IMG/VR virus record: IMGVR_UViG_3300010413_000025
Span: 3,192-67,191 of that record
DNA: 64,000 bases
Source: a virus
Reading direction: 5' to 3' (one strand)
Shown: positions 24,556-43,404 of the stretch, one piece after another
Numbering within the stretch: position 1 is the stretch's first letter
Layout of the letters: each line of letters begins with the position of its first letter
The notes under the pieces: generated by a model
What the model was told of the DNA's origin: nothing
Database searches by the model: none
What the model saw: the letters and a program-made list of their open reading frames with translations, nothing else
Program-made: the position numbers and the translations under genes

Positions 24556-24569
24556 GGCCGTCCGTGGCC
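24556..24569 (-). repeat. GGCCACGGACGGCC hairpin (CsrA/RsmA-type site), copy 1 of 7
   Basis: Also at 25094, 25708, 39132, 42128, 42641 and 42940; always intergenic. Confidence 0.75.
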
Positions 24570-24580
24570 GATCTTTAATT

Positions 24581-24988: not shown

Positions 24989-25025
24989 TTTCGTGTCCCC
25001 TTTCTGTGGTCGGTTTGTCGTGCTG

Positions 25026-25082
25026 TTACTTACCTTAACGACCATTATACAGAAACCTTTAGGCCCTGCAACAAAAAAATTT
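25026..25082 (-). promoter_or_regulatory. Repeated early promoter (sigma28 + sigma70 composite)
   Basis: TAAAGGTT-N11-GTCGTTAA overlapping TTGCAG-N16-TATAAT. Confidence 0.75.
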
Positions 25083-25093
25083 CATGTATTTGC

Positions 25094-25107
25094 GGCCGTC
25101 CGTGGCC
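25094..25107 (-). repeat. CsrA/RsmA-type hairpin
   Basis: GCGGCC-ACGGAC-GGCCGC. Confidence 0.7.
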
Positions 25108-25115
25108 GCCAGTTT

Positions 25116-25682
25116 TTAGTTGCAATCCAAGAACTTAGACAGCAGTTCCTTGTCAGCGCCCTGAACTTTCCGCACCTTGACCATCTTCGCGACGGTCAGC
25201 ATGTCGGCCAGTTTCGCTTCGTTCAGGTTCAGATCGGTGGCCTTTTCCAGCGCGGCCCGGATTGCCTTGAACGTGTCGCTGTTTGGGTCCTTGCACTGCG
25301 CGCGGAATGCCAGCTTCGCTTTTGTCTTCACCCGGCGGGCTGCCATGTCGGCGCAGTAGTTGGCGACGCCGTCATGGATGAACGTCCCGTGTGCGCCTTC
25401 GTATTCGTTCAGCGCGGCCCTGTACACGCGGTGCCCCAGCTTTTCCAGTGCCTTGTCGCCGCAGGACGCGTCGACCTTCATCCCGTACCGCTTGGCAAGG
25501 TGGCGCAGCTTCGACACCCAGCCGTCGCCGTCGTTGTAAACCCGGTAGTACGCGTTCTGGAACCGGCGCCAGTCTTCAAGCTTCGGGCGGTTCTTGTCCA
25601 GCACCTTGCCTTCGTGTGGAATGTCGATGTTCAGCAGTTCCACCATCGCTTCGCCAAAATTTGTATGCCAAAAAGAATTCAT
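25116..25682 (-). CDS. Hypothetical early protein
   Basis: NAYYRVYNDGD motif; SD present. Confidence 0.6.
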   Translation of the reverse strand: MNSFWHTNFGEAMVELLNIDIPHEGKVLDKNRPKLEDWRRFQNAYYRVYNDGDGWVSKLRHLAKRYGMKVDASCGDKALEKLGHRVYRAALNEYEGAHGTFIHDGVANYCADMAARRVKTKAKLAFRAQCKDPNSDTFKAIRAALEKATDLNLNEAKLADMLTVAKMVKVRKVQGADKELLSKFLDCN

Positions 25683-25707
25683 GTCGTTACCCTTTCGTTT
25701 AAGTTGG

Positions 25708-25721
25708 GGCCGTCCATGGCC
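25708..25721 (-). repeat. CsrA/RsmA-type hairpin
   Basis: GGCC-ATGGAC-GGCC. Confidence 0.7.
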
Positions 25722-25855
25722 GGGAAATTATCCTGTTGTTTAATCGGCCCAGACGTAGTCCGGGTGCGTTGCCAGCGTGATTTCGGTCACTTCCACGCCG
25801 TCTTCGTTGGTGTACATGTTTTCGTACCAGACAGTCCGGGTTATGCAGCAGTAGT

Positions 25856-26125
25856 TCATGCCAGCACCTGCACGCGGGCTTCGTCGGTGTAGTCGCTGTC
25901 TTCGTCGAAGATTTCCATCGGCACGTTGACGATCAGGCCGACGCGGTTGTGGTCGCCCAGAAACGTGGCGTCCTTCGTGCAGCGAACGGTCAGGAAGTCA
26001 GCAAACCCGTCGGTGGTGCGGCCTTCCACGACACCTTCGAAGTACATCGGGCGGCGTTCGGGGAACGGCGGATGGTCGAAAGCTTTGATCGTCTGGCCAT
26101 TCTGGATGTGTTCGTATTTCAGCAT
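25856..26125 (-). CDS. Hypothetical early protein (SH3-like)
   Basis: Repeated leader AGAAAGGGGACACGAAAATG. Confidence 0.6.
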   Translation of the reverse strand: MLKYEHIQNGQTIKAFDHPPFPERRPMYFEGVVEGRTTDGFADFLTVRCTKDATFLGDHNRVGLIVNVPMEIFDEDSDYTDEARVQVLA

Positions 26126-26166
26126 TTTCGTGTCCCCTTTCTGGTTTCAGTTGCCTTACAGTATGT

Positions 26167-26213
26167 TTAACGGCTGGTCGGGCTAATCCTTTAGCCCTAT
26201 TTCGAAAAAATTT
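26167..26213 (-). promoter_or_regulatory. Repeated early promoter (sigma28-type only)
   Basis: CTAAAGGAT-N11-GCCGTTAA with upstream A/T tract. Confidence 0.7.
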
Positions 26214-26537
26214 TTAGAATGTCCAGTTACCGTTTCCGTCGCTTTCGTAGAAGGCTTCGAAGCTTTTCACGTGCGGGTAGTTGGCGCCGATCAGGAAGGG
26301 TTTCGCTTCCAGATTCATGCCGGTCTGGCCGGGCACGATGCGGTCGTTCACCACAGGGTTGTCGACCCAGATCAGGCCCTTTTGCGTCAGCTGGCCCACA
26401 TAGCCCGCGTACTGACGGTCGGTCAGGCCCAGCGCCTTGTAGTCGATTTCGTCGGTAAAGCCGAAGTCGCCGCCGTTGTTCATCATGTTGTCAGCCAGCG
26501 CCAGCAGTACGTTCAGTTCGGTGGTGTTCAGTTTCAT
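26214..26537 (-). CDS. Winged-helix-like early protein
   Basis: LGLTDRQYAGYVGQLTQKGLIWV. Confidence 0.55.
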   Translation of the reverse strand: MKLNTTELNVLLALADNMMNNGGDFGFTDEIDYKALGLTDRQYAGYVGQLTQKGLIWVDNPVVNDRIVPGQTGMNLEAKPFLIGANYPHVKSFEAFYESDGNGNWTF

Positions 26538-26567
26538 TTCGTTTCCCCTTTCTGGTTTCGGTCGGTG

Positions 26568-26624
26568 TTACTTAACTTAACGACCACAGTACAGGAAACT
26601 TTAGGGCATTGCAACAAAATTTTT
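26568..26624 (-). promoter_or_regulatory. Repeated early promoter (sigma28 + sigma70 composite)
   Basis: TAAAGTTT-N11-GTCGTTAA overlapping TTGCAA-N17-TACTGT. Confidence 0.75.
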
Positions 26625-26725
26625 CTGTTGCACCGAATGCAGGGCGGTCGGGGTCGGCGGCGGGTCGGGAATGGGCAGGATGTCGCCGCACCCCGCCACG
26701 ATCAGAATTGCCAGCAGGGCGCCCA

Positions 26726-27037
26726 TCAGTGGCGCGTGGGCGGGTTTTCGAACCCGGGCGGCGTGTCGGTCCCGGTGTCCTTGATGTCGCCCCAGTCCAT
26801 CCCCTGCGCGGCGTGCGCGATAGCCTGAAGTTGTTCGAACAGGTCGGGGTCGGCGAATGCCTTCGCGATGCCTTCCAGCAGATACGCGTGCGGCGGCTGT
26901 TCTTCGCTGTCATCGACCGGGTACAGGGCCATCACGCCCACTTCGCCGTCAGCTGCGACCGTCAGGGCCGTTTCCTGCCGGTCTTGATCCAGCATGACGC
27001 CCACCTTGCCACCATCAAATTCAACCATCTTCGCCAT
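26726..27037 (-). CDS. Hypothetical protein
   Basis: ATG 27037 with GGGGGA SD. Confidence 0.5.
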   Translation of the reverse strand: MAKMVEFDGGKVGVMLDQDRQETALTVAADGEVGVMALYPVDDSEEQPPHAYLLEGIAKAFADPDLFEQLQAIAHAAQGMDWGDIKDTGTDTPPGFENPPTRH

Positions 27038-27038
27038 G

Positions 27039-27752
27039 TCAGTTCCCCCAGTTTTCGCGTACCCACGGGTCGGGCACTTCGTGCGGGTCCGGCTTGCCGT
27101 GGAACACGACCACGCGCGCGTCCTTCGGCAGGCCCTTTCCCCGGCAGTGGTACTTGTAGGACACCACAAACCGGCGTTCGAAATTGGCTATGCTGTCCCG
27201 CAGTATGCGCCAGATCGCGCACTGGTCGCCGTGAAGCTTCGCCATGGCGCGTTCATCGTTCGCTTCGAATGTCCGGAACAGCCTGTGAATGTCCGGGTCC
27301 GTTACGTCGAACAGCATCGCGGACGAATTGTGCGCGCAGTGCGCCTTGTTGGGCGAAAAGTTTTCGACCATGATCAGGGGCTGGTCAGCCACTGCCCGAA
27401 CAATCGGGTCCAGTGAACCGGTCAGGACCACGTCAAGGTCCAGATACAGCGTTTTCCCGCCGGGCATAATTTCCGGGTTGAACATGTTGAACTTTTGCCA
27501 CCATGTGCCCCATTCGTTCATCGGCAGGATTCGCGTCACGCCGTCCGGAACTTCGTCGTCGGTGATGCAAAACATGTCCCAGCGAACTGTCGCGGGCATA
27601 CAGCAGGCCACAGAATCGCGCAGCCGGGCGACATACTTCGGGGAATACTTCGGCCCCCACTTCACGCAAACGACGTTCACGTGGTAGGGCTGCGGCCCCT
27701 GTTCGGCCCAGATCGGCGGGTTAAGGTTCGGCAGCGTCAGGTCCATGATCAT
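27039..27752 (-). CDS. GT-A glycosyltransferase (GT8-like)
   Basis: VVCVKWG.KY...WWQK...LYLDLDVV (DxD), NSSAM, GDQ, VVFHGKPDP. Confidence 0.85.
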   Translation of the reverse strand: MIMDLTLPNLNPPIWAEQGPQPYHVNVVCVKWGPKYSPKYVARLRDSVACCMPATVRWDMFCITDDEVPDGVTRILPMNEWGTWWQKFNMFNPEIMPGGKTLYLDLDVVLTGSLDPIVRAVADQPLIMVENFSPNKAHCAHNSSAMLFDVTDPDIHRLFRTFEANDERAMAKLHGDQCAIWRILRDSIANFERRFVVSYKYHCRGKGLPKDARVVVFHGKPDPHEVPDPWVRENWGN

Positions 27753-28432
27753 TTCCCCGGGACAAAGATCAGGTCGCGGTGAATCGACGCGTGCAGCTTG
27801 TAGCCCATCACGTCGACCAGCCAGCGTTCGGATGCGCCCACGCGGTGCCCGGTTTCCCGGTCCTGCGGCAGCGCCTTTTCTTCGATCATAATCACGGGCT
27901 GGTTCGTTTCGATCAGTTTCCGCGCACCCTTCAGTGCCTTCAGTTCCAGTCCTTCGATGTCCAGCTGGATCAGGCCCACGGGTCCCACGATGTCGCCAGA
28001 CGCCACCAAATCGTCCAGTCGGTATACGGGGACCTTTTCAGCGCCCGGACTTGGGATGCCTTCCTTCACTTCCTTGATGTAGTAGGCGCCAGCGTTCGAA
28101 ATTTCACTGGGCGGCAGCTTCACTTCGCCGTAGCCCATGTGATCAGACAGCGCGCCACGGATCGGCGTCACGTTCGTGCGGTCTTCCAGATTCGTGGACA
28201 GGCACGCGAAGTTTTCGCGGTCGGGTTCGAACGTGTACACGTGGTGGAATTCTTTCGACATGACCCACGGCCACACGCCCATGGCCCCGCCCGCCTGAAT
28301 GGCGACCGATGCGCCCGGTTCTGCGACTGCGTCCATGGCCACGTTCAGGTCGTTAATCCAGCTGTTGACCTGTATCAGTTTCGTGTCTTCCTGATTCCAG
28401 CGCCACGATTTGCCTAAAAATGAAATCATCAT
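27749..28432 (-). CDS. FkbM-family methyltransferase
   Basis: IQAGGAMGVW, YTFEPD, IQLDIEGLELKALKGA...PVIMIE. Confidence 0.88.
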   Translation of the reverse strand: MMISFLGKSWRWNQEDTKLIQVNSWINDLNVAMDAVAEPGASVAIQAGGAMGVWPWVMSKEFHHVYTFEPDRENFACLSTNLEDRTNVTPIRGALSDHMGYGEVKLPPSEISNAGAYYIKEVKEGIPSPGAEKVPVYRLDDLVASGDIVGPVGLIQLDIEGLELKALKGARKLIETNQPVIMIEEKALPQDRETGHRVGASERWLVDVMGYKLHASIHRDLIFVPGK

Positions 28433-29082
28433 AATATTTCGTCCAGTTCTGCGGTTTCGAAAAAGTCCAGCGCCGAATCCGGCGTGCAGTTGATTATACG
28501 CACCCCTAGCGCGTCCGTGTCAATGGTCCGGAATACTTTCAGCAGGCCGGTGAATTCGCCGTTCGGCCCCACCTTCGGCCAGTGTTGCAGGGCCTTCGGA
28601 TATTCGCCGAAATAGTGGCGCCCCTGCCCCGCCTTGTGCTTCGCCCGGTCATAGCCCGGCAGGTAGCGCATGTCGTAGCCGATCAGGATGAAATTCCGGG
28701 CGCCGTAGTGGTAGGCCAAATTCAGGATTTGAAACCCGGACGCATGGCCGTAGTGGATGTAGCCGGGGTCGGTCGAAAAACTGTCGCCCCACTTGCCCGG
28801 AATGTAGTTGATCCCGTAGCGGTCGGCCGTTGCCTTGTCCCACGTCCACTTGTCAGCCTTCGAATCACGCAGGGCCGCGCTGTCCTTGTAGTGGTCCCAC
28901 CATTCGATGTTGCAGGCCATGTGCACGTCCAGCGGCGTTACCATAACAGCATTGTTCACCCCGAACACCCGGCACTGGTTCTGCTGCCGCGCGTAGCGCA
29001 CGCGTTCCAGCTGTTCGACGGTAAGGGAAGGGCCGGTGCCGATGATCACGGCCGGATAGTCAGCGAAATTTTTGAAGGGCAT
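28429..29082 (-). CDS. Maf/DUF115 (CMP-sugar transferase-like) glycosyltransferase
   Basis: IIGTGPSL, GVNN, SGFQILNLAY..GA..ILIGYDM, HYFG, IINCT. Confidence 0.75.
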   Translation of the reverse strand: MPFKNFADYPAVIIGTGPSLTVEQLERVRYARQQNQCRVFGVNNAVMVTPLDVHMACNIEWWDHYKDSAALRDSKADKWTWDKATADRYGINYIPGKWGDSFSTDPGYIHYGHASGFQILNLAYHYGARNFILIGYDMRYLPGYDRAKHKAGQGRHYFGEYPKALQHWPKVGPNGEFTGLLKVFRTIDTDALGVRIINCTPDSALDFFETAELDEIL

Positions 29083-29884
29083 CTGTCAGACTCATTTTAG
29101 GGAACATGTTCAGCGCCGTGTTCGGCGTCGCGTTGACGATTTCAATCCCGTAGTCTTCGGGCTTTATCGTCGCATAATTTTGAACGAATCCGGTGTATCC
29201 ACCGTTCCGCGCCAGTCCTTCAGGATGATCACCGAAAAAATGCTTTTTGTTGTTCACCACGCGCATGTTGTAGCCGCACAAAATAATTCGGTTAATCCCG
29301 AACAGGTAGGCCAGATTTATAAGCTGGTAGCCGCTGTTGTTTCCGAAATGGATCAGGTCCTGCTTTCTCGACAGTCCCTTTGCCCCGCAGCCTTTGATCC
29401 GCCGCAGGCCCGGGAACTGCGATTGCGGCATGTTCGGTTCCTGCGTCCACATTCCATGCGTGGTTTCGTATTCGCGGATATGTTCGAAGTGTTTCCGCCA
29501 CCATGCGAAATCGCAGGCATAGTGGACGTTCAAGTACGGCGCGATGCGATAGGCGTCATTGCACCCGAACAGGTAAAGTTCCTGCGTCAGCCGGGCGGCC
29601 ATGATTTCGTCCATAACTTCGGGGGTCAGGCCGGGGCCGGTCGCCATCAGGACGGCCGCCTTGCCTTCGAAATCCCGGGGAATGGTTTCCGGCTTGATGG
29701 GGTCCGGCGGTGGGCTGCGCCTGTGCTGTCCGCGAACGCCAGCGGCCTGACGGGGCTGTGCCTTCGCGGGAAGGTCCTTGATCAGGGAAACAGGCCCGGG
29801 CGCCGCAGACGGCCCCAGCTTCGGCCGCAGGTGGCGGTCTTCCGCTGTAGCACGAATATTTTTCAGTCGCTGCAAGCGAATCAA
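29060..29884 (-). CDS. Second Maf/DUF115-like glycosyltransferase (paralogue)
   Basis: LMATGPGL, GCND, NSGYQLINLAYLFG...LCGYNM, HFFGDHP, IVNAT. Confidence 0.75.
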   Translation of the reverse strand: MIRLQRLKNIRATAEDRHLRPKLGPSAAPGPVSLIKDLPAKAQPRQAAGVRGQHRRSPPPDPIKPETIPRDFEGKAAVLMATGPGLTPEVMDEIMAARLTQELYLFGCNDAYRIAPYLNVHYACDFAWWRKHFEHIREYETTHGMWTQEPNMPQSQFPGLRRIKGCGAKGLSRKQDLIHFGNNSGYQLINLAYLFGINRIILCGYNMRVVNNKKHFFGDHPEGLARNGGYTGFVQNYATIKPEDYGIEIVNATPNTALNMFPKMSLTDALQKFR

Positions 29885-31827
29885 TGTGCTTCCGCCCAGT
29901 TCGCGCCGTGGTCGCTGCTGACCAGCAGGGGAACCCGCAGCTGGTACACGTCTTTCATCATTCTGGCCGCTTCAGCGTGCGCCTGAACGGCTTGCGGGGT
30001 TTGGGGGACCGACCAGTTCAGTTCGTCGTGAACGGTCAGCAGCGGCGGCCCCATGAAGTCACACACGCCAGATTCCCAGATATTGACCATTGCAAGTTTC
30101 ATCAGATCGGCCGCGCTTCCCTGCATTAGTGCGTTCAGGGCTGCGTACCCGAACGCCCGTTTCACGCCATGTTTACCCCACGCCAGCACCGCGTCGTCGT
30201 ACAGCAGCGGGGTCGGCTTGTTGTCCTTGTAATTATACCCGAATTTTCCATAGTCGCGCGGTTCCCACAGATCGAACCGGCGGCGGCGCCCCAGCAGGGT
30301 CATGATGTAGCCCCGATTTTCGGCCACCCGGGACACATTCCGCATCAGTGCCTTGATGAACGGCAGCCGGGCGTGGTACATCGCAAAAATTTCTTCGGCT
30401 TTTTCGCGGGTTACGCCCAGCTGACGGGCCAGCTTTTCGATGCCCATCCCGTAGCCCAGCCCAAAATTGATATTTTTCGCCGGTTTGCGGTCGATCCCGG
30501 TTATGCTGGCGACGTAGTCGTGGAAATCGGTCGTCGGGTCTTCCCTGTATGCCCGCTGCGTAGCTTCGGCCGACTTTCCGGTGCCGTAGTGGACCAGTTC
30601 GCGGAATTCGATCTGCGACCAGTCGTCGCTGTACCAGACTTCGTCCGGTTCCGGAATAAACATGGACCGCATCAGCGGCCCCAGTTCTTCGTCCCGGGCA
30701 GGGATGTTTTGCAGGTTCGGGTTCGATGAACTGAATCGGCCGGAAACCGTCCCGTTGCTGTCGGTCTTCAGCTGGTGGAATTGCGTATGCACCCGGCCGT
30801 CGACGGCGTTTCCCAGCACCGCCCCCTGAATGAACGTGGTCACGGTCTTGTCATACTTGCGCGCTTCGACCAGCTTCCGCAGTCGCGGGTCTTCGTGCTT
30901 TTCCAGCCACAGCGCCGTGAAGGATGGTTTCTTTGTCTTCGCGGTCAGGGGGTATTCGATGCCGGACCTGTCGCACATTTTCGCGACCTGTTCCGCGTTC
31001 CAAATATCCGGAATGCCGATGTCCTTACAGATTTGAATTTTCCGTGCGGTCAGGTCGTCCGTCGCGCGCTGCGCGTTCGCTTCGTCGACTTTGACGCCAC
31101 GGCGCCGCATGGACAGCATCATAGGCATAAGCCGTTTTTCAATGTCCCAGACGCGCCCTAGTTCCTGTTCTTCGATGATCGCCAGCTGTTTGCGAATAAT
31201 CTGCTGCGGCAGTGTCACGTCGGCGATTGCATACGGCGCCGCTATTTCCGGCGGGCACCGATAGATATTTTTCCGCTGATCCCGTTCCTTGCCATAGGTC
31301 CGGTTCAGCCAGTCTTCCATGTCGGATTTTTCCTTGCCGATGCCCAGATACTTGAACGACTGCCGGTCCAGCGAAAAACTGTGCTGGTTTTCGTCAATCA
31401 GCGGTTCCGCAATCTGGATGTCGAAATATGGCCCCGGGACCTGCACGCCTTCTTCCCACAGGTAGTCCAGATCGTACAGCAGGTTCGCGCCGATCTTCGG
31501 GACGCCTTTCAGGCATAGATTCCGCTGTGCCCATGCCATAACGTGTTCGCGCAGGTAGCCGACGCCGTTCGGATTGTATTCAAGGTCGTGCCGTATCGGC
31601 AGGTAAAAGGCTGCGTCTTCGGTGGCCACGGAAATTCCGACGATATAGCCGCCAGTTCGCACGCCGGGTCCCTTTGTCTTCAGGTCCGGATCATACGTTT
31701 CGGTGTCAATGGTCAGTTCTTTGGCCGCTGCCAGATTGAAATCATTCAGCGACTGGAATCGCAGCTTGTTCGTCCACTCCCGATATTTTTCGGGGATTTC
31801 CTGATACCGGGGATGCTTAAACGCCAT
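29881..31827 (-). CDS. polA: Family A DNA polymerase with 3'-5' exonuclease
   Basis: IDTET ExoI, GTVSGRFSS, DWSQIEFR (A), KNINFGLGYG (B), TVHDE (C). Confidence 0.95.
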   Translation of the reverse strand: MAFKHPRYQEIPEKYREWTNKLRFQSLNDFNLAAAKELTIDTETYDPDLKTKGPGVRTGGYIVGISVATEDAAFYLPIRHDLEYNPNGVGYLREHVMAWAQRNLCLKGVPKIGANLLYDLDYLWEEGVQVPGPYFDIQIAEPLIDENQHSFSLDRQSFKYLGIGKEKSDMEDWLNRTYGKERDQRKNIYRCPPEIAAPYAIADVTLPQQIIRKQLAIIEEQELGRVWDIEKRLMPMMLSMRRRGVKVDEANAQRATDDLTARKIQICKDIGIPDIWNAEQVAKMCDRSGIEYPLTAKTKKPSFTALWLEKHEDPRLRKLVEARKYDKTVTTFIQGAVLGNAVDGRVHTQFHQLKTDSNGTVSGRFSSSNPNLQNIPARDEELGPLMRSMFIPEPDEVWYSDDWSQIEFRELVHYGTGKSAEATQRAYREDPTTDFHDYVASITGIDRKPAKNINFGLGYGMGIEKLARQLGVTREKAEEIFAMYHARLPFIKALMRNVSRVAENRGYIMTLLGRRRRFDLWEPRDYGKFGYNYKDNKPTPLLYDDAVLAWGKHGVKRAFGYAALNALMQGSAADLMKLAMVNIWESGVCDFMGPPLLTVHDELNWSVPQTPQAVQAHAEAARMMKDVYQLRVPLLVSSDHGANWAEAH

Positions 31828-33154: not shown

Positions 33155-33400
33155 CTTTTAGCCTTTTCAGTTCTTCGCGTAGTTGTCGCACACGTTCCAC
33201 TTGCATTCGGTATACCTTGCCCAGATACCCGCCGCCTTCCATCAGGCATTCGTGCGCCTTCAGCAGTCGGGCCTTTTCGTCGTCATCGTCGTTCGTCGTC
33301 ATCTGGTGTCCCCGGGCACGGCTTGCGCGCCGCCTTCCGGGTCGCCTTGTTCTTCAGCAGGATCAGTCCGCATTTGCGGCAAACTGGCCAGCTGAAAATT

Positions 33401-34791: not shown

Positions 34792-34985
34792 TGCGCGTCC
34801 CCCCGTCGTAGAATGTACCGAACGCAGCGAACCGGGCACTTGCACCGGCCGCCGCCACCGTCGCAGATTTCGATTGCCAGTGCGCGGGCTTTCTGCGGTT
34901 CTGTTATTCGGTCTTCATTGATCCACACGTGCGTTTCAGTATTGAACGGCGCGTGGTAGTGATAAATTGGCAGGCGTTCAGTCAT
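34788..34985 (-). CDS. Small Cys-rich protein
   Basis: C...RCKCPVRC; overlaps both neighbours. Confidence 0.45.
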   Translation of the reverse strand: MTERLPIYHYHAPFNTETHVWINEDRITEPQKARALAIEICDGGGGRCKCPVRCVRYILRRGDAQ

Positions 34986-36714: not shown

Positions 36715-36802
36715 TCCCGTGGTTTGACGTATTACAATATGGGCATTTATGACTGTGCGGATTCGCTGCGTCTAGCCCGGTTTATCCCTTTCGGGGAATT
36801 CT

Positions 36803-37375
36803 TTAGCGCCTTATCGCGCCTTTCGTTTTTTCTTCGTCGAACATCACGCCGCAGTATTCCAAAGCTTCGCGAATCTGCGTGAAGTCTCCCTGAATCAGTC
36901 GGTCGGTGTCAACCCAGACGCCGCCGTATTGCTGGTGCAGGATTTTCATTTGCAGGTACCGCCATTCGGCCGCCTTGCGCGCCATTTCCGGGTCGGCGTT
37001 TCGTCGCTTGTCGCAGATTGATTTCACCACGGCTTCGGGGTCGCGAACTATGAACACATTGAACGGATTCAGCGGACGGAATACATGGAAATATTCGATT
37101 CCGGTTTTCATCATCCACGGCCTGTCGCTGGGGGTTACCCCCTGAATATCGCGAAGGCACGGTGGAACATTCGGTTCGTCGATAGCTGGCAGGGTGCAGA
37201 ATGGCAGGCCGAAATACTGTTTCAGAATCGCCTTGATCTGCTGATTTTCGAACGTGTCATACCCGGCGGACTGCTGCTGCCGGTTTCCCCAGTACAGGCC
37301 GTGCGCGGCGAATATTGCTGCCACCATGCTAGATCGGCTGCGGCTTGTCATCCATAGCAAAATCGGGCTGTGCAT
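36803..37375 (-). CDS. Sulfotransferase-like protein
   Basis: LWMTSRSRSSMVA (PAPS 5'-phosphosulfate-loop-like), IVRDPEAVVKS. Confidence 0.65.
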   Translation of the reverse strand: MHSPILLWMTSRSRSSMVAAIFAAHGLYWGNRQQQSAGYDTFENQQIKAILKQYFGLPFCTLPAIDEPNVPPCLRDIQGVTPSDRPWMMKTGIEYFHVFRPLNPFNVFIVRDPEAVVKSICDKRRNADPEMARKAAEWRYLQMKILHQQYGGVWVDTDRLIQGDFTQIREALEYCGVMFDEEKTKGAIRR

Positions 37376-37661
37376 CGGGTCCCCCCATGTGCGCTATTTG
37401 ATTGTCCAGCTGTAACTGTGTGTCCTGAAACAGCTGCATGAAAGTGTCGGCAAATACTGGCAAGGTCAGGCGGCCCTGTCCAGTCTTCGACTGTACCTGC
37501 GTCATCAGGACGGCCAGTACGTCGACAGCCCCTGCCAGATAGTCCAGCCGCCGAATGTGGTAGTCGTCCGAATCCATGGGCGCCCCGTCCATTTGCGACG
37601 TTATGTGCCGATCCCATGCTTCGGCCAGTGTTTCCATTATCGGTCCGGTTGTCGCTGTCAT
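37329..37661 (-). CDS. Hypothetical protein
   Basis: ORF track. Confidence 0.55.
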   Translation of the reverse strand: MTATTGPIMETLAEAWDRHITSQMDGAPMDSDDYHIRRLDYLAGAVDVLAVLMTQVQSKTGQGRLTLPVFADTFMQLFQDTQLQLDNQIAHMGGPDAQPDFAMDDKPQPI

Positions 37662-37842
37662 GTTATAAAATCCCCGGAAAATATAACCTTTAAGGTATAA
37701 GCCCGGGTTCCATCCCGGGCCGATTTTAGTTAGGTTTCTGATCGGTTAGCTATTCATTCAAAGCCCCCCTGCGTGTAGTTCAACGGTTATTAAGGCAGCC
37801 ACCCGTTCGGACAGTAGGCGCCTTCCGTGGCGCCCCTGTCAA

Positions 37843-38592
37843 TTACGCGGCCAGTTCCACCACGCTGTCGGTCAGCAGGTGAAGCTTTTCCGTCTTGCGG
37901 ACGATGTCCACCACGTTCGTGCCCTTCAGGGCTTCGGTCGCGGCGTTGAACATGCGCCACGCCGACCGGCCTGTGCGGGTGAACGAATCGTGGTCGGGCG
38001 CGTCCCACTGCTGGACCAGCTTCGGGAACCGGTGGGCGTTCATGATGCCCTGACGCAGCATTTCGACCATGATGTGTTCGGCTTCGAACGTGGCCAGCTG
38101 GCGCGACTTATAGGCTTCGAACCGGGTGTTCTGGAATTCCGCCTTGTTCACCATCTGACCGATTGAACCAGCGACGATTTCGGGCAGGTCCAGAAGGATG
38201 TTGCCGGATTCGCCCGCCGTATGCTTGCGCACGGCCTTGACTTCGCCGCTGAACGACAGGTTGTCGCATACGAACACGCTTGCGCCGATTGCGATGCCAG
38301 CCCCGAACCGCTTCGAATGACTGTTACGCATTCCGACCATCAGGGCGTAGTCCTGCGTCGTCAGGTTTTTGCCTTCGACTTCGAACATGCCGAAATAGTC
38401 ACGGCCGCCGTTGTTCAGGCCGTGGACCTGATCGGCGATGGTGAAACCGCGTTCAGCCAGCTTGCTTTCGACCAGATCAACGAAATAGTCGTGGCCTATC
38501 GGCTGGTAGGTCTTCGTCGACGCGGGCAGCGTCGGGTTCGACAGTTCCGAACGATTCACCTTTTTCGAACCACAGTGCAGAATAATAGACAT
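37843..38592 (-). CDS. DUF932-family protein
   Basis: TYQPIGH, MRNSHSK, VFVCDNL, RKHT, SAWRMFNAATEALK. Confidence 0.8.
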   Translation of the reverse strand: MSIILHCGSKKVNRSELSNPTLPASTKTYQPIGHDYFVDLVESKLAERGFTIADQVHGLNNGGRDYFGMFEVEGKNLTTQDYALMVGMRNSHSKRFGAGIAIGASVFVCDNLSFSGEVKAVRKHTAGESGNILLDLPEIVAGSIGQMVNKAEFQNTRFEAYKSRQLATFEAEHIMVEMLRQGIMNAHRFPKLVQQWDAPDHDSFTRTGRSAWRMFNAATEALKGTNVVDIVRKTEKLHLLTDSVVELAA

Positions 38593-38623
38593 GTTGTTTC
38601 CCCTTTCTCAGTTGACGATTTGA

Positions 38624-38653
38624 AGTTTACAGCGGCATTCACGCTGCTGTCAA
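38624..38653 (-). promoter_or_regulatory. sigma70-like promoter
   Basis: TTGACA-N18-TAAACT with upstream A/T tract. Confidence 0.6.
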
Positions 38654-38686
38654 TAAATTTTTCGGCAGTACCACCGTTTCCTTTAG

Positions 38687-38908
38687 CTAAATCAGGAAAA
38701 AATGTTTGTCGTTGCGAATCTTCACCCAGCGCGATGCGCGGTCCCGACTGTCACCTTCCAGCAGTGAATCCGGCGCCACCAGTGCGTGCTGTCCCTTCGC
38801 GAATGCCACGTTGTCGACCCGCAGAATGGTCCAAATATCGCCCCATTCCTTGATGATCTGGCGGCCCTTCGCCGTTTTTGCTTCCAGTCGTACAGTGTTC
38901 GGTTTCAC
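38687..38908 (-). CDS. Hypothetical early protein
   Basis: GTG start overlapping the upstream stop. Confidence 0.45.
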   Translation of the reverse strand: MKPNTVRLEAKTAKGRQIIKEWGDIWTILRVDNVAFAKGQHALVAPDSLLEGDSRDRASRWVKIRNDKHFFLI

Positions 38909-39117
38909 GCGTTTTCCCCTTTCAAAAGTTTTTCGGCGACCGCGCGGCTGATATTGCGCGCGCCGATGCTGAAGTATGCCCGGGTCTTGTCCACGCCGTT
39001 TTTCGACCGCGTGATAAGCTGGCACTCCACGTTTCCGCAGGCTGAATGCTGGCGGTACCCATCGCAATGGATTCCCGGCTGTTTGCGTGCGGCTTCGATC
39101 ATTTCGGTAGTATTCAT
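38905..39117 (-). CDS. Hypothetical early protein
   Basis: Repeated SD leader. Confidence 0.55.
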   Translation of the reverse strand: MNTTEMIEAARKQPGIHCDGYRQHSACGNVECQLITRSKNGVDKTRAYFSIGARNISRAVAEKLLKGENA

Positions 39118-39131
39118 TTCGTTTCCCCTTT

Positions 39132-39145
39132 GGCCGTCCGTGGCC
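39132..39145 (-). repeat. CsrA/RsmA-type hairpin abutting the SD
   Basis: GGCCACGGACGGCC-AAAGGGGAAACGAAATG. Confidence 0.7.
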
Positions 39146-39152
39146 GGTCAGT

Positions 39153-39374
39153 TTAGATTTCGGTCCAGCTGTCTTTTTCCAGTTTGACGCCGTCGTTCAG
39201 CATTTCCTGAAGGACCATGGCGTTTTCGGCGGCGTTGCCCGGGCAGCCCCACAGGGCCTTCGCTGCCCACTGGCGCCCCTTGCGGTTCTGGACGACAGTC
39301 GCGAACATGTCGGCGTCGGCATCTTCGAAAATTTCCTGCGCGGGCCGGACGATCACTTTGAATTTCAGTTCCAT
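39153..39374 (-). CDS. Hypothetical early protein
   Basis: Repeated SD leader. Confidence 0.55.
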   Translation of the reverse strand: MELKFKVIVRPAQEIFEDADADMFATVVQNRKGRQWAAKALWGCPGNAAENAMVLQEMLNDGVKLEKDSWTEI

Positions 39375-39398
39375 TTCATTTCCCCTTTCTGGTCGGTG

Positions 39399-39455
39399 TT
39401 ACTTAATTTAGCGACCACCTTACAGGAAACTTTAGCCTGCCGCAACAAATTTTTT
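39399..39455 (-). promoter_or_regulatory. Repeated early promoter (sigma28 + sigma70 composite)
   Basis: TAAAGTTT-N11-GTCGCTAA overlapping TTGCGG-N17-TAAGGT. Confidence 0.75.
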
Positions 39456-39778
39456 CACTTTTCCCATACGTCGGTGGTCCCTTCGACCCAGCGGTGGCCG
39501 TAGCTGTCCACGAATGATACCCGGGCGGTCACGGTCCAGCGCACCGCGTATTCGTCGCGGCTGTATCCCGGTTCTGTGGTGCGAACCATCAGCCCGGCGT
39601 TCATCAGGTCGCCGAATGCCATGCTGCGCGCCCCAGCGACCCACAGGGCGGTCGTCACCGGCTGTTCCAGTGTCAGCGCAAGGATCACGCCCTTTCGCAG
39701 CAGACGCGCGGCCCTGCGCAGGCTGCGGGGGTGTTCCGGGCCGAAGTCGACCCATTCACCGTTCAGGAATGCAATCAT
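39455..39778 (-). CDS. Hypothetical early protein
   Basis: ATGA overlap. Confidence 0.5.
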   Translation of the reverse strand: MIAFLNGEWVDFGPEHPRSLRRAARLLRKGVILALTLEQPVTTALWVAGARSMAFGDLMNAGLMVRTTEPGYSRDEYAVRWTVTARVSFVDSYGHRWVEGTTDVWEK

Positions 39779-40023
39779 TTTTTGTCCCCTTCGAAAAACC
39801 ACAGGGCGTATACAGCGCCCTTTGTGTACGTCACGGTGCCCGTGTCGCCCACTTCCACGTCGTGCACCCCATTGAATGAACCGTTCACAAAAATGTGACC
39901 TTCACCCGCGTCGTCCACCGCCCGGGCGTACCCGGCGTAGTGCCGGGGATAGCCCCATTCGTCCTTCCGGGTCTGGTTCGGGACGACTTCGACGATTTCC
40001 GCCTTGCGCGTGGTGCCGATCAC
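39775..40023 (-). CDS. Hypothetical early protein (OB-like)
   Basis: ORF track. Confidence 0.5.
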   Translation of the reverse strand: MIGTTRKAEIVEVVPNQTRKDEWGYPRHYAGYARAVDDAGEGHIFVNGSFNGVHDVEVGDTGTVTYTKGAVYALWFFEGDKK

Positions 40024-40307
40024 GACAGCACCTGCACAGGGTAAAGTTCGCGGATTTTGTTCGCCATGGCGAATACGTGCTGGTCGTCGCTATCGCGAAC
40101 GTGCGACCAGTCCCACAGCAGGTCGGTCGACAGCCGGGCGCCTTTCAGGTCGCCGAACCCGTTCCCTTCCAGCCGGACTTTCGCCTGCTGCAAATCGTTC
40201 AGCAGCGTGCGGTGCTTCCCCTGATAGTGCAGGAAATCCACCACCAGCTGCCACGCTTCGTCGCGCTTGGTCATGAAGTCTTCCAGTTCTTTCAGTGTGT
40301 CGGTCAT
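40020..40307 (-). CDS. Hypothetical early protein
   Basis: AAGGGGA SD. Confidence 0.55.
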   Translation of the reverse strand: MTDTLKELEDFMTKRDEAWQLVVDFLHYQGKHRTLLNDLQQAKVRLEGNGFGDLKGARLSTDLLWDWSHVRDSDDQHVFAMANKIRELYPVQVLS

Positions 40308-40318
40308 GATCGTTCCCC

Positions 40319-40522
40319 TTAGTACAGGCCCGCCAGACGGCGGCGTTGCAGTTCGGCGTATGCGTAGTGCATTTCGTCGATGTAGTACCCGGCGTTTTCG
40401 CCTTCCGGGTTCGCTTCCGACGCTTCGCGCGCGTCCTGAATGATGAACCGCAGCTGGTCGATGCTTTTCCGCTTCAGGCCGCGCTGGTAGGCTGCGTGGT
40501 CCATTTTTTTCGCTGTTGCCAT
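40319..40522 (-). CDS. Hypothetical early protein
   Basis: MATAKKMD start after the repeated leader. Confidence 0.55.
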   Translation of the reverse strand: MATAKKMDHAAYQRGLKRKSIDQLRFIIQDAREASEANPEGENAGYYIDEMHYAYAELQRRRLAGLY

Positions 40523-40553
40523 GTCGTTTCCCCTTTCTGAATTTCGGCTGGTG

Positions 40554-40610
40554 TTACTTAACTTAGCGACCACCTTACAGGAACCTTTAGCCCGTTGCAA
40601 CAAATTTTTT
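40554..40610 (-). promoter_or_regulatory. Repeated early promoter (sigma28 + sigma70 composite)
   Basis: TAAAGGTT-N11-GTCGCTAA overlapping TTGCAA-N17-TAAGGT. Confidence 0.75.
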
Positions 40611-41179
40611 CAGTTTTCCCACAAATAAACCGCCGACAGCGCCCGCAGGAACAAATCCCGGTGTCCTTCGGTCAGGACTTCCAGCAGCTGCGCCTTTTCG
40701 CGCATGTACACCACCGCAAAATTCGGGTCGTACAGCGTTATCGACCGCGTGTTGTCCAGCAGGTCCGCCAGCTTGACCGTCTTCGCCATGGCCGACGCCT
40801 GCGCCGTGTGCGCCCGATCCAGTGCCTTGCGGGCTGCCCGGTTGCCGTCTTCCGGCGTACTAATATCGGTCAGCTGCTGAACCAGCCGGACCATGCTTGA
40901 CCCCAGCCCATGCTGTAACAGGTCAGTAGCGGTCACGTCGGTGTCTTCCAGCACGTCATGCAGGTAGGCCGCGCCTATCATATCCACGTCAGGGAAAACG
41001 CCCCCGACAAGCCGTGCGACAGCCACGGGGTGCGTCACGTAGGGTTCGCCGGTGTACTTGCGCACCTGCCCGGCGTGGGCTTCCACGGCGACCCGCAGGG
41101 CGGTGTCCAGCAGGTCCACCGAACGCGGGGCCACAGTGCAGTGCCATCCGTGGCCGTTCTTCAGTATATCGTCAGTCAT
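40610..41179 (-). CDS. HD-domain (p)ppGpp hydrolase-like protein (RelA/SpoT HD, small alarmone hydrolase)
   Basis: AHAGQVRKYTGEPYVTHP, AAYLHDVLEDT, LTD, VKLADLLDN. Confidence 0.85.
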   Translation of the reverse strand: MTDDILKNGHGWHCTVAPRSVDLLDTALRVAVEAHAGQVRKYTGEPYVTHPVAVARLVGGVFPDVDMIGAAYLHDVLEDTDVTATDLLQHGLGSSMVRLVQQLTDISTPEDGNRAARKALDRAHTAQASAMAKTVKLADLLDNTRSITLYDPNFAVVYMREKAQLLEVLTEGHRDLFLRALSAVYLWEN

Positions 41180-41190
41180 CAGTGTTCCCC

Positions 41191-41478
41191 TTAAATCAGT
41201 GCGTCCAGCGGGCCGCGCTTCATGTCGGCCACCACATTGTGATGGTAGCCGCTGCGGTCCTGATAAAAGCCCCGGCAGTCGTAGCCGTTGTTTCGGCGGC
41301 GGTCTTCCTGCGTGTGGTAGGTCTTCCCACCACAGCGAAAGCAAACCCCGCCCGGGCCTTTCGGCTTGCCGTTTTCCACGTACGTGATGAACTGGCCGGT
41401 GCCCGCACAGCGGCGGCAGTGGTGGTTCCCGGTCACGGTGTAGTCGTTGTCGATCACGCCTATGTTCTGAATTTTCAT
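41191..41478 (-). CDS. Zinc-finger protein
   Basis: CRRCAGTG...CFRCGG (DnaJ-like CxxCxGxG). Confidence 0.6.
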   Translation of the reverse strand: MKIQNIGVIDNDYTVTGNHHCRRCAGTGQFITYVENGKPKGPGGVCFRCGGKTYHTQEDRRRNNGYDCRGFYQDRSGYHHNVVADMKRGPLDALI

Positions 41479-41632
41479 TTCGGTTCCCCTTAGTACAGCG
41501 GTTTCATCGGACGGTTGCGGGCAGCCTTGAATTCGATCCAGAAAATCCCGGCTACTGCGGCGGTTCCGGCTACTACTGCAATCAGTGTCATGAATGTGGT
41601 CATTTCGTTTTCCTTTCTGATTTCGTGTGGTC

Positions 41633-41689
41633 TTACTTAACTTAACGACCACCTTACAGGAAACTTTAGCCCATTACAACAAATTTTTT
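41633..41689 (-). promoter_or_regulatory. Repeated early promoter (sigma28 + sigma70 composite)
   Basis: TAAAGTTT-N11-GTCGTTAA overlapping TTGTAA-N17-TAAGGT. Confidence 0.75.
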
Positions 41690-42104
41690 ACGCTTTGCGG
41701 CTGATCTTGTACATGCAGACGATTCGCTTCCGGCGGTTCTTTGACCAGTCTAGCACTTCGCTTCCGGCCACGGCGCCCAAGTGCCGCGAATAGCTGACAA
41801 TATAGCGGTCTGGGAATGCGCCCGGCTTTTCGGTCAGCAGGCGGTTCAGGGTCAGGCCGGTGCGGGCCGGGATTTGCGTCGCGTCGATTCGTTCCCATGT
41901 GTAGCCCAAAGATTCCAGCGCGTCCAGCGTTTGCCAGATAAAGGTCCCGTCCCGGGGCTTGCGGCCCTGACATTCCAGCGCGTAGTGGGCCATTTCGTAG
42001 CCTTCGCCAGTCGCTATCGCCAGCGCCTTTACTGCGCAGTCGTTGCGCTCGAAAAATTCGTTCGATGTTTCCATGACCTTTTCGTAAAGTTCGTAGGGTG
42101 TCAT
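41688..42104 (-). CDS. Papain-fold (C39-like) hypothetical protein
   Basis: NDCAVKALAIATG.GY...HLGAV...LDW. Confidence 0.55.
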   Translation of the reverse strand: MTPYELYEKVMETSNEFFERNDCAVKALAIATGEGYEMAHYALECQGRKPRDGTFIWQTLDALESLGYTWERIDATQIPARTGLTLNRLLTEKPGAFPDRYIVSYSRHLGAVAGSEVLDWSKNRRKRIVCMYKISRKA

Positions 42105-42127
42105 CTTTCTGTACCTTTCTGGTTTGG

Positions 42128-42141
42128 GGCCGTCCATGGCC
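42128..42141 (-). repeat. CsrA/RsmA-type hairpin
   Basis: GGGCC-ATGGAC-GGCCC. Confidence 0.7.
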
Positions 42142-42153
42142 CGGGGGTTCGTT

Positions 42154-42525
42154 TTAGGCTTCGTGGCGGTCGGCCATCCACTGTTTGTACCCGGCCTGCG
42201 TCTGCGGGTAACCGTCGGCCTTCAGCCACTTTTTGATGTGACTCAGGACGAAACCCTTCGACTGCACGATTTCCAGCGGGGTTTCACCAGCGGCCATGCG
42301 GCCCAGATATTCTTCGACGGTGAAGTTCTTGCAAAGGAAGGTGATCCACGGACCCTTGCTGCTGGTCGACGCGTACTTGAAGCGGGCAATAAAAGCGGGC
42401 TTCGCGATGCCTTCGCGGGTCGGGTGACAGGGCTGCGTGTAGTATTCAGTCATTTCGCCCTGTTCGCCGTTGTAGGTCAGGTAGCCGCCGTGGTAGCTGA
42501 AGTCGTCGCGGTTGAATTTGGTCAT
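42154..42525 (-). CDS. Conserved phage early protein
   Basis: F.YHGGYLTY...FIARFKY...FLCKNFTVEEY. Confidence 0.65.
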   Translation of the reverse strand: MTKFNRDDFSYHGGYLTYNGEQGEMTEYYTQPCHPTREGIAKPAFIARFKYASTSSKGPWITFLCKNFTVEEYLGRMAAGETPLEIVQSKGFVLSHIKKWLKADGYPQTQAGYKQWMADRHEA

Positions 42526-42561
42526 TTCGTTTCCCCTTTCTGATCTGGTTTGTGTTGCCGT

Positions 42562-42618
42562 TCACTTAACTTAACGGCAAGGTTACCGGAACCTTTAGGG
42601 CATTACAACAATTTTTTT
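42562..42618 (-). promoter_or_regulatory. Repeated early promoter (sigma28 + sigma70 composite)
   Basis: TAAAGGTT-N11-GCCGTTAA overlapping TTGTAA-N17-TAACCT. Confidence 0.78.
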
Positions 42619-42640
42619 CGTTTTTACCGAAAAAAGTTTG

Positions 42641-42654
42641 GGCCGTCCGTGGCC
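42641..42654 (-). repeat. CsrA/RsmA-type hairpin
   Basis: GGGCC-ACGGAC-GGCCC. Confidence 0.7.
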
Positions 42655-42663
42655 CGGTTCTTG

Positions 42664-42918
42664 CTACAGCCGGTCGATATTGTCCAGCAGCTTGCGGATC
42701 GCAGCCGTTCGGGCTTCGTCGCGCCGCAGCCAGACGCGTTCCGGCTTGTACCCGACGTGGTCGATGATCACGGCCCGGCCGTCGGAGTAGTATTTGTAGT
42801 CGCCGCGTGCGACACGTGTCACGCGCCCTTCCTTGATCTTCACGCCGCCGTCGCGGGTGTACACCATGACGTACACGGTCGTGCGGGGTTTCAGTTCGTC
42901 GAATTCTCTACCTTGCAT
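42664..42918 (-). CDS. Hypothetical early protein
   Basis: AAGGTGA SD. Confidence 0.55.
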   Translation of the reverse strand: MQGREFDELKPRTTVYVMVYTRDGGVKIKEGRVTRVARGDYKYYSDGRAVIIDHVGYKPERVWLRRDEARTAAIRKLLDNIDRL

Positions 42919-42939
42919 AGTATCACCTTTCTAGGTTGT

Positions 42940-42953
42940 GGCCGTCCATGGCC
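42940..42953 (-). repeat. CsrA/RsmA-type hairpin
   Basis: GGCC-ATGGAC-GGCC. Confidence 0.7.
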
Positions 42954-42960
42954 GTCAGGG

Positions 42961-43323
42961 TTAGTTTACGGGGTAGGTCCAGTCCAGCCCGTAGTCGTAA
43001 CGAAAATGGTCGTCGTCACGTGCGTGATATTCGTCGGCACTGCGCAGCCAGCGAATCGCGGTTTCCCGGGTGCGGGCGCCCATGGCCACCACGTCGGCCA
43101 CCAGCTTTTCGAACTTGGCGGCGTTGCGGGCGAACATTTCGCGTTCGTGCTGTTCCTGCCCGGCGCAGTCGTCGGAAACCTGCTGCGCCAGCACGCGCAG
43201 TTCGTCCATCGACATGGCGTCGAAGTTCACCCAGCGCGGGCGGATGCCGTGGGCCGACTTGTATTCGTCCCAGATATAGATTTCCAGAAATTCGCGGTCG
43301 TTGCAGGTGCTGAAGTCGTTCAT
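42961..43323 (-). CDS. Conserved phage early protein
   Basis: IWDEYKSAHGIRPRW...GARTRETAIRWL. Confidence 0.65.
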   Translation of the reverse strand: MNDFSTCNDREFLEIYIWDEYKSAHGIRPRWVNFDAMSMDELRVLAQQVSDDCAGQEQHEREMFARNAAKFEKLVADVVAMGARTRETAIRWLRSADEYHARDDDHFRYDYGLDWTYPVN

Positions 43324-43347
43324 TTTGTGTCCCCTTTCTGTTGTCGT

Positions 43348-43404
43348 TCACTTAACTTAACGGCAACTCTACAGGAAACTTTAGCCCACTGCAACAATTT
43401 TTTT
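43348..43404 (-). promoter_or_regulatory. Repeated early promoter (sigma28 + sigma70 composite)
   Basis: TAAAGTTT-N11-GCCGTTAA overlapping TTGCAG-N17-TAGAGT; overlaps the end of the upstream gene. Confidence 0.8.

Follow-up and report, generated by a model that had tools for sequence, protein, structure and literature searches.

Repeated sigma-28-type promoter boxes in a siphovirus-type phage genome lacking a recognizable sigma factor gene, and their probable use by the host flagellar sigma factor

A repeated promoter-like element was analyzed in a 64,000-nt stretch of phage DNA (hereafter the window), which comprises bases 3192-67191 of the IMG/VR record IMGVR_UViG_3300010413_000025. The record is complete at 67,191 bp, with terminal repeats of 144 bp and a G+C content of 57%, and nearly all genes are carried on the minus strand. 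Searches with PHROGs and Pfam assigned siphovirus-type head, neck and tail genes together with terminase, portal and lysis genes; two superfamily-1 helicases, a family-A DNA polymerase, a dCMP deaminase, a dNMP kinase and an HD phosphohydrolase; and a block with methyltransferase, glycosyltransferase and Mom-like genes. Numerous small open reading frames (ORFs) had no family. The element carries two boxes in the arrangement of flagellar sigma-28 (FliA) promoters and is, as argued below, probably read by the sigma-28 factor of the host.

The window was scanned with the pattern TAAAGNNT-N11-GYCGYTAA, allowing at most one mismatch, and the result was compared with 100 shuffled sequences. Eight exact matches were found, every one of them on the minus strand (low coordinates 25035, 26167, 26577, 39408, 40563, 41642, 42571 and 43357), where 0.05 were expected and none of the 100 shuffles reached eight. 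When a leading C was added and up to three mismatches were allowed, the same eight sites and no others were returned (0.40 expected). The preliminary description had reported precisely these eight copies with fixed spacing, numbering them by the low end of a longer repeat, 9 nt below the box, and only the copy at 26167 by the low coordinate of the box itself. De novo repeat finding recovered the element as families D1-D3, of 60-85 nt and 6-7 copies, in ungapped register. Beyond the limits of the window, the plus strand carries a ninth copy (genome 2230-2256), which heads two ORFs (genome 2290-2487 and 2499-2705; 65 and 68 amino acids (aa), no Pfam family) directed toward the minus-strand structural genes. 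The reversed control pattern had no match in the whole genome, compared with nine for the motif.

The aligned element reads, in order, an A-tract, TTG(C/T)(A/G)(A/G), five bases, CTAAAG(G/T)TT, an 11-nt spacer holding TAnnnT, G(C/T)CG(T/C)TAA and nnTAAGTAAC, beyond which AGAAAGGGGA and a start codon follow after 15-25 nt. Every copy in the window occupies a short intergenic gap, is co-oriented with the gene behind it and has the start codon 26-39 nt downstream. Eight of the nine copies (seven in the window and the ninth) are termed dual here, as they also hold sigma-70-like boxes; the remaining one is sigma-28-only. The copies in the window are as follows.

43346-43405, minus strand: dual promoter upstream of the 120-aa ORF 42961-43323, with the predicted sigma-28 start near 43349; sigma-28 boxes TAAAGTTT (43376-43383) and GCCGTTAA (43357-43364); sigma-70-like boxes TTGCAG (43389-43394) and TAGAGT (43366-43371).
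42560-42619, minus strand: dual promoter upstream of the 123-aa ORF 42154-42525, with a terminator-like hairpin just upstream (42640-42655); sigma-28 boxes TAAAGGTT (42590-42597) and GCCGTTAA (42571-42578); sigma-70-like boxes TTGTAA (42603-42608) and TAACCT (42580-42585).
41631-41690, minus strand: dual promoter upstream of a short ORF and the 95-aa ORF 41191-41478; sigma-28 boxes TAAAGTTT (41661-41668) and GTCGTTAA (41642-41649); sigma-70-like boxes TTGTAA (41674-41679) and TAAGGT (41651-41656).
40552-40611, minus strand: dual promoter upstream of the 67-aa ORF 40319-40522; sigma-28 boxes TAAAGGTT (40582-40589) and GTCGCTAA (40563-40570); sigma-70-like boxes TTGCAA (40595-40600) and TAAGGT (40572-40577).
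39397-39456, minus strand: dual promoter upstream of the 73-aa ORF 39153-39374, with the replication module further downstream; sigma-28 boxes TAAAGTTT (39427-39434) and GTCGCTAA (39408-39415); sigma-70-like boxes TTGCGG (39440-39445) and TAAGGT (39417-39422).
26566-26625, minus strand: dual promoter upstream of the 107-aa ORF 26214-26537; sigma-28 boxes TAAAGTTT (26596-26603) and GTCGTTAA (26577-26584); sigma-70-like boxes TTGCAA (26609-26614) and TACTGT (26586-26591).
26156-26215, minus strand: sigma-28-only promoter upstream of the 89-aa ORF 25856-26125; sigma-28 boxes TAAAGGAT (26186-26193) and GCCGTTAA (26167-26174); the -35 register lacks TTG and the spacer lacks nAnnnT.
25024-25083, minus strand: dual promoter upstream of the 135-aa ORF 24581-24988, with a hairpin upstream (25094-25107); sigma-28 boxes TAAAGGTT (25054-25061) and GTCGTTAA (25035-25042); sigma-70-like boxes TTGCAG (25066-25071) and TATAAT (25044-25049), separated by a 16-nt spacer.

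The sigma-28 consensus is TAAAGTTT-n11-GCCGATAA (PMC2859248). All nine copies match the -35 octamer at 6-8 of its 8 positions and keep the 11-bp spacer, and the -10 octamer is matched at 6-7 of 8 positions. The consensus A of the -10 octamer is found in none of them (T in seven, C in two). For Pseudomonas aeruginosa, PMC12784957 gives the fliC promoter as -35 TCTAAAG and -10 (-15)GCCGATAA(-8) and describes how the A at -11 flips into sigma-2 during melting of the open complex, which is called a key event. The weight assigned to each -10 base in the present analysis rests on that paper and on our own genome scans.

Whether bacteria use these variants was therefore examined by way of the genes that follow them in bacterial genomes: for loci with full flanks, the first ORF of at least 60 codons starting no more than 300 nt downstream was compared with Pfam. 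The outcome for the two variants and two controls was as follows.

CTAAAGGTT-N11-GCCGTTAA: at least 121 bacterial loci; flagellar or chemotaxis first ORF in 45 of 71 (26 Flagellin_N, 16 FlgM, 2 FlgA, 1 MCP).
CTAAAGKTT-N11-GTCGTTAA: at least 120 bacterial loci; flagellar or chemotaxis first ORF in 31 of 66 (13 flagellin, 6 FlgM, 5 FlhD, 3 FliS and one each of FlgK, MotY, CheW and a Tar-type receptor).
GCCGCTAA (control): 62 loci; flagellar or chemotaxis ORF in 10 of 37.
GCCGGTAA (control): 49 loci; flagellar or chemotaxis ORF in 0 of 23.

The GCCGTTAA matches listed include many genomes of Marinobacter, Vibrio and Halomonas/Vreelandella; one Vibrio genome holds both GCCGATAA (A) and GCCGTTAA (T) sites. 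A FliA-family gene above the cut-off was present in all five tested bacterial genomes with the T variant. A full-text literature search for the variant octamer gave nothing relevant among the matches listed. Judged by the ORF counts per variant, the bases which the phage uses at -11 are those tolerated before flagellar genes, and the base it does not use is not found there.

Conservation was followed in related phages. The helicase encoded at 43902-45629 has about a dozen metagenomic relatives with 57-62% identity. Three IMG/VR loci and three metagenome loci were obtained by alignment of helicase relatives, two further IMG/VR contigs were obtained with promoter-derived patterns, and the helicase identity of the relatives, measured for six, was 56-60%. 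Sites were collected with the pattern TAAA-N15-GnCGnTAA, which imposes the spacing in the relatives. In this way, 28 sites in eight phage contigs were gathered: nine from the present genome and 19 from seven relatives (2, 3, 2, 1, 8, 2 and 1). In each of the five IMG/VR relative records searched, the sites are confined to one strand and the reversed control pattern is not found; at every locus oriented by the helicase, they lie on the helicase strand. At the positions which the pattern does not fix, the sites likewise follow the sigma-28 consensus: 21 of 28 have the preceding C, and in the -35 box 27 have G at position 5, 23 have T at position 7 and 26 have T at position 8. Only pyrimidines (C or T) occur at position 2 of the -10 box, and the base at -11 is T in 22 sites, A in four, C in two and G in none. 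The consensus across phages is CTAAAG(G/T)TT-N11-G(C/T)CG(T/A/C)TAA. The spacer and the upstream flanks vary between phages (spacer CCTGTAAGGTG here, compared with TCGGCAGGGAC or TTCCCGGACGT in the relative L204).

Among 159 helicase-based loci (L123-L281), co-oriented sites were found in five of the six close relatives alone (L123 two, L124 three, L125 two, L202 one and L204 eight). The sixth, L203, has no site in the approximately 620 bp available downstream of its helicase. The array is absent from the more distant helicase relatives (~28-43% identity) among these loci. Four loci with two to three pattern matches each (L130, L236, L239 and L243) were rejected, as none has conserved flanks: the matches in L130 are copies of a tandem repeat on the strand opposite to the helicase, those in L236 and L243 lie on both strands, and those in L239 are all on the opposite strand. 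A locus search with a single protein returned no relatives, and a scan of IMG/VR with a 15-mer core gave at least 114 loci, with the -10 box in none among the matches listed. Several contigs of the relatives (L123, L125 and L423; records G158, G160 and G156) end in or just past the promoter array; assemblies may break at its repeats.

The bases following the -10 box were compared with regard to a predicted start. In the 28 sites, position 7 after the box is T in 27, position 8 is a purine in all and position 9 is A in 25; the flagellar promoters of bacterial hosts favor purines at positions 8 and 9 as well. By the numbering (-15)GCCGATAA(-8) of PMC12784957, position 8 corresponds to +1. In addition, A stands at position 4 after the box in 24 of 28 phage sites (e.g., the T-A at window positions 41638-41639).

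Seven of the eight copies in the window had been described as carrying an A/T tract and TTG(C/T)(A/G)(A/G), followed after 17 nt (16 nt in the copy at 25035) by TAnnnT, and this is indeed what they contain. The single perfect TATAAT is present in the copy at 25035, and the copy at 26167 is devoid of both sigma-70 boxes and retains the sigma-28 boxes alone, as had been said. In the 28 sites, TTG-N16-18-nAnnnT is complete in 12, both boxes are missing in 15 and TTG alone occurs in one (Fisher's exact test, p = 4e-7; the Fisher tests overstate independence, since the sites are related by descent). TTG, the A at -11 and the T at -7 are conserved within the overlay, and the A-tract lies at the place of a proximal UP element. 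The dual sites have GTCG in nine of 12 cases and the remaining sites have GCCG in 14 of 16 (p = 0.0015), as if the sigma-70 and sigma-28 functions constrained each other. In L204, all eight sites are without the sigma-70 box pair, and separate sigma-70-like promoters are found between them (14, compared with 6.3 ± 2.5 expected). Against TTGACA/TATAAT, the boxes of the dual copies match at 3-4 of 6 positions for the -35 and 3-6 of 6 for the -10 hexamer, 6-9 of 12 in total, and a simple sigma-70 scanner (at least 9 of 12 positions and at least four per hexamer) calls none of the overlay promoters. The proposed overlay thus stands as a real, discrete class supported by the distribution of its boxes, with each promoter weak by consensus. 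The two start sites had been expected a few nucleotides apart; from the positions of the boxes, a sigma-70 start directed by TAnnnT would lie 8-10 nt further upstream than the sigma-28 start.

Proteins which could read the element were searched for in the complete genome. Neither Sigma70_r2 (PF04542) nor FliA_WhiG (TIGR02479) had a six-frame match at E ≤ 10, and Sigma70_r2 had no match in the records of five relatives, all of which are fragments. FlgM had no match in the genome, and a phage FlgM was set aside. The sole signal for Sigma70_r4 (PF04545) came from a 114-aa ORF (12948-13292, minus strand; 14.4 bits in six frames, 24.8 bits with hmmscan), which combines the Sigma70_r4-like part with an HTH_31/XRE helix-turn-helix and lies directly upstream of the small terminase gene. 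This double helix-turn-helix protein is a candidate for a late-gene or switch regulator. As the six-frame searches revealed no sigma gene of the phage, the host sigma-28 is the simplest reader, and we consider it probable (about 0.68) that host FliA reads the nine promoters of the putative early genes and the replication genes. What is observed here is the motif, its pattern of conservation, its match to natural flagellar promoters and a genome in which no sigma gene was found. The preliminary description had named FliA as a reader next to the housekeeping sigma factor, and its interpretation as a whole is partly supported. Reading by FliA is supported by three findings: relatives conserve the boxes and their spacing, the variants occur before flagellar genes and a phage sigma gene was not found.

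From these observations, we infer the identity of the bound sigma factor, where transcription starts, when the genes are expressed and what the phage gains from this, and the following steps are proposed. The expected contacts of sigma-28 are CTAAAG(G/T)TT for region 4 and, 11 bp downstream of it, G(C/T)CG(T/C)TAA for regions 2 and 3. The conserved T-A step, 8 nt past the -10 box, would be the start of transcription, and the leader of 26-39 nt would end in AGAAAGGGGA, a strong ribosome-binding site. The same DNA would act as a weak sigma-70 promoter in eight of the nine copies, with a proximal A-tract, TTGnnn five bases ahead of the -35 box of sigma-28 and TAnnnT within the sigma-28 spacer. 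Because this weak promoter shares the DNA, either holoenzyme could fire, from starts ~8-10 nt apart, in the manner of an OR gate. One copy in this genome and most copies in the relatives are sigma-28-only; the genes behind them would be expressed only with free FliA, that is, in cells with a completed hook-basal body.

Several points weigh against FliA as the reader, in addition to the low consensus match of the overlay and the common descent of the sites given above. The A at -11, whose flipping is described as a key event of melting in P. aeruginosa, is absent from all nine copies. Position 3 after the -10 box is T in 25 of 28 phage sites compared with five of 45 host flagellar promoters; together with the last three bases of the box, it forms TAAnnT, a sigma-70 -10-like element which activator-dependent sigma-70 could use. 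The FliA dependence of the bacterial GCCGTTAA, GTCGTTAA and GCCGCTAA promoters is deduced from the genes behind them. The sequencing runs containing the phage DNA are marine sediment metagenomes, which may be its source, and no RNA run was listed. The presence and activity of FliA in the host are an assumption. As to that host, a relatives search with the C-terminal part of the tail protein gave matches confined to the same phage group, and alignment of the tail protein with bacterial genomes gave at most 40% identity, scattered among assorted metagenome-assembled genomes. A 20-kb stretch compared with 151 genomes of the genus of one Marinobacter genome gave short matches at about chance level, the best of which (32 nt, 94% identity) does not lie in a repeat array. 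A DNA search found no close cultured phage, and a search with the 81-nt element gave chance-level matches (E = 8). At the protein level, matches are remote (DNA polymerase at most 43% identity, tail protein ~30%).

Repeats of many near-identical promoters are typical of phage-specific regulons, and the array could accordingly consist of middle promoters read by a phage factor, either a divergent sigma factor or an appropriator redirecting the host sigma-70 as MotA/AsiA of T4 do. CTAAAG(G/T)TT would then be the box of this factor, and the TAAnnT overlapping the end of the -10 box would be the sigma-70 -10 element, which is just where the phage sites depart from host flagellar promoters. Sigma-70-like promoters from which such a factor could be made first exist (38653-38624 here, 14 in L204), and many early ORFs without family could encode it. 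Nevertheless, Sigma70_r2, FliA_WhiG and a convincing Sigma70_r4 were not found in the six frames of the complete genome, and an unrelated factor would by coincidence have to match the sigma-28 consensus at 13-15 of its 16 positions and with exactly the right spacing. It would also have to tolerate the natural flagellar -10 variants T, C and A but not G, and the invariant GnCG would have no role in a sigma-70 -10 element. We therefore regard a phage factor as unlikely.

Plain sigma-70 early promoters, in which the sigma-28-like boxes are duplicated spacer and leader with an accidental likeness to FliA sites, are improbable. The A-tract, TTG and TAnnnT of eight of the nine copies would suit them, and a fixed A at -11 and T at -7 around a variable middle are the usual signature of a working -10 element. 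However, 15 of 28 sites, including the copy at 26167 and all eight in L204, lack both sigma-70 boxes, yet they retain the sigma-28 boxes and stand before genes that have a ribosome-binding site. Moreover, the spacer and flanks diverge across the phages but the two sigma-28 boxes do not, and the consensus match of the sigma-70-like boxes is only 6-9 of 12.

An operator function of the boxes was considered with regard to a dyad around the predicted start of dual copies (GGTCG..CGACC, GGTC..GACC or TTGCCGTT..AACGGCAA), the arms of which change in a compensating way between copies. In the alignment, it was placed in the following copies.

25024-25083, minus strand: dyad-bearing dual copy.
26566-26625, minus strand: dyad-bearing dual copy.
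39397-39456, minus strand: dyad-bearing dual copy.
41631-41690, minus strand: dyad-bearing dual copy.
42560-42619, minus strand: dyad-bearing dual copy.
43346-43405, minus strand: dyad-bearing dual copy.

Because the 5' arm lies upstream of both predicted starts, an RNA hairpin formed from the dyad at the start was rejected, and the dyad would be a feature of the DNA or act in read-through RNA; it may be an operator in the dual copies. It is very unlikely that the sigma-28-type boxes themselves are operators of a phage DNA-binding protein which switches the early promoters off or on, although the covarying arms and an encoded XRE-type regulator (e.g., the 114-aa ORF 12948-13292) would fit. The dyad is absent from the sigma-28-only copies and from most relatives, what stays invariant is a pair of asymmetric boxes separated by 11 bp and not a palindrome, and a copy of host flagellin and flgM promoters would be unexpected for an operator. 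Since an operator could coexist with a promoter, this explanation is an addition more than an alternative. Finally, titration of FliA had been raised in the preliminary description, and nine sites per genome, multiplied by replication, could be cited for it. It is hardly credible, however, that the sites serve mainly as FliA decoys against host flagellar genes with incidental transcription: every site has the position and direction of a promoter, 26-39 nt ahead of a gene whose ribosome-binding site is strong, and a decoy would not need such a placement.

Returning to FliA as the reader, a biological role can be put forward tentatively. A clade of marine siphophages might use the host flagellar sigma factor as a sensor of the host state, such that some early genes, behind sigma-28-only promoters, need a motile cell, dual promoters keep the others active both before and after an interference of the phage with sigma-70 transcription, and the replicating array drains FliA from host flagellar genes. 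A motile cell with a finished hook-basal body would be exactly the type of cell entered by a flagellum-dependent phage.

Class 3 flagellar promoters share with the phage element both boxes, the 11-bp spacer, the C before TAAAG, the A/T-rich upstream region and the purine 8 nt past the box, and the exact variants of the phage precede flagellin, flgM, fliS, flgK and motY in bacteria. They differ in that the phage copies occur in a virulent-looking genome before small ORFs and a replication module instead of flagellar genes, that all nine lack the A at -11, that the T-A at positions 3-4 is phage-specific and that most are overlaid with sigma-70 boxes. Regulons of phage-encoded sigma factors are known from phiEco32 (gp36) and SPO1 (gp28). 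They likewise consist of many near-identical promoters heading blocks of non-structural genes; here, in contrast, no sigma gene was found in six frames and the motif is that of a host sigma factor. The middle promoters of T4 combine a MotA box with a sigma-70 -10 element and depend on AsiA as well. A fixed box in place of the sigma-70 -35 element is common to both systems, and 25 of the 28 sites here offer a TAAnnT further downstream, but relatives of MotA or AsiA were not noted in the general PHROGs and Pfam scans, and box and GnCG copy the sigma-28 consensus. The nearest idea met in the literature is control by CtrA: for flagellotropic and pilitropic phages of Alphaproteobacteria, PMC9437464 describes CtrA-binding sites and ctrA genes. 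Both cases would share one logic, phage expression being tied to a host regulator of a surface appendage, but there a response regulator acts on promoters and does not replace the sigma factor, the host clade is another one and the use of a flagellum is conjectural in the present case.

As usually described, phages transcribe their early genes with the housekeeping sigma factor of the host, with a polymerase of their own or with their own sigma factor. The literature searches returned no report of phage promoters read by host sigma-28, and a review of flagellotropic phages names FliA only in its reference list. New in the present case are a small complete genome without a recognizable sigma gene which carries a sigma-28-type array; the sigma-70 overlay and its resolution into separate promoters in L204; and variant -10 forms which are those found before flagellar genes. 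If FliA is the reader, early and replication genes under the motility sigma factor would tie infection to the motile state of the host and add a new layer of phage-host regulation. For uncultured phages, the array would give a host clue from the DNA alone, pointing to flagellated bacteria with the same promoter variant. The dual arrangement and its separated form in the relative would provide a natural series on two holoenzymes sharing one stretch of DNA.

Further features accompany the array. A hairpin of the sequence GGCCA(C/T)GGACGGCC occurs seven times on the minus strand.

24556-24569, minus strand: hairpin.
25094-25107, minus strand: hairpin.
25708-25721, minus strand: hairpin.
39132-39145, minus strand: hairpin.
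42128-42141, minus strand: hairpin.
42641-42654, minus strand: hairpin.
42940-42953, minus strand: hairpin.

Each copy follows the stop codon of a gene within the two promoter-rich regions (24556-42953; 0.09 copies expected). Terminator-like stems were called at four of these places (24556, 25094, 39132 and 42641). Only the call at 42640-42655 is on the gene strand; the others are the same stems read on the plus strand. The repeated hairpin is probably a shared terminator or an RNA-stabilizing stem. With a promoter before the genes and a hairpin after their stops, the two promoter regions look like strings of small transcription units. The hairpin part CACGGACGGCC recurs in the relatives, in one case inside a promoter spacer with the hairpin complete (L125:12581) and in another ahead of a promoter (L423).

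The start regions of genes share the block AGAAAGGGGA(A/C)ACGAAATG (24500-24541, 26513-26554, 38895-38923, 39104-39132 and others; repeat families D4-D7), and this ribosome-binding block is present also at genes without the promoter element. A separate sigma-70 consensus-like promoter was called beside the array.

38624-38653, minus strand: TTGACA-18-TAAACT, in agreement with the consensus at 10 of 12 positions; the gene behind it, at the head of the replication module, is the DUF932 gene 37843-38592.

It may be an ordinary host promoter; across the region, six sigma-70 consensus-like calls were made where 7.3 were expected, which is no excess over chance. In L204, TTGACG-17-TAATAT (17363-17391, plus strand) stands ahead of a 251-aa ORF at a place similar to that of the DUF932 promoter. 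Finally, glycosyltransferase, methyltransferase and two sialyltransferase-like genes are clustered together with a Mom-like gene at 27039-29884 and 34982-35800 (minus strand), which suggests that the DNA of the phage is hypermodified.

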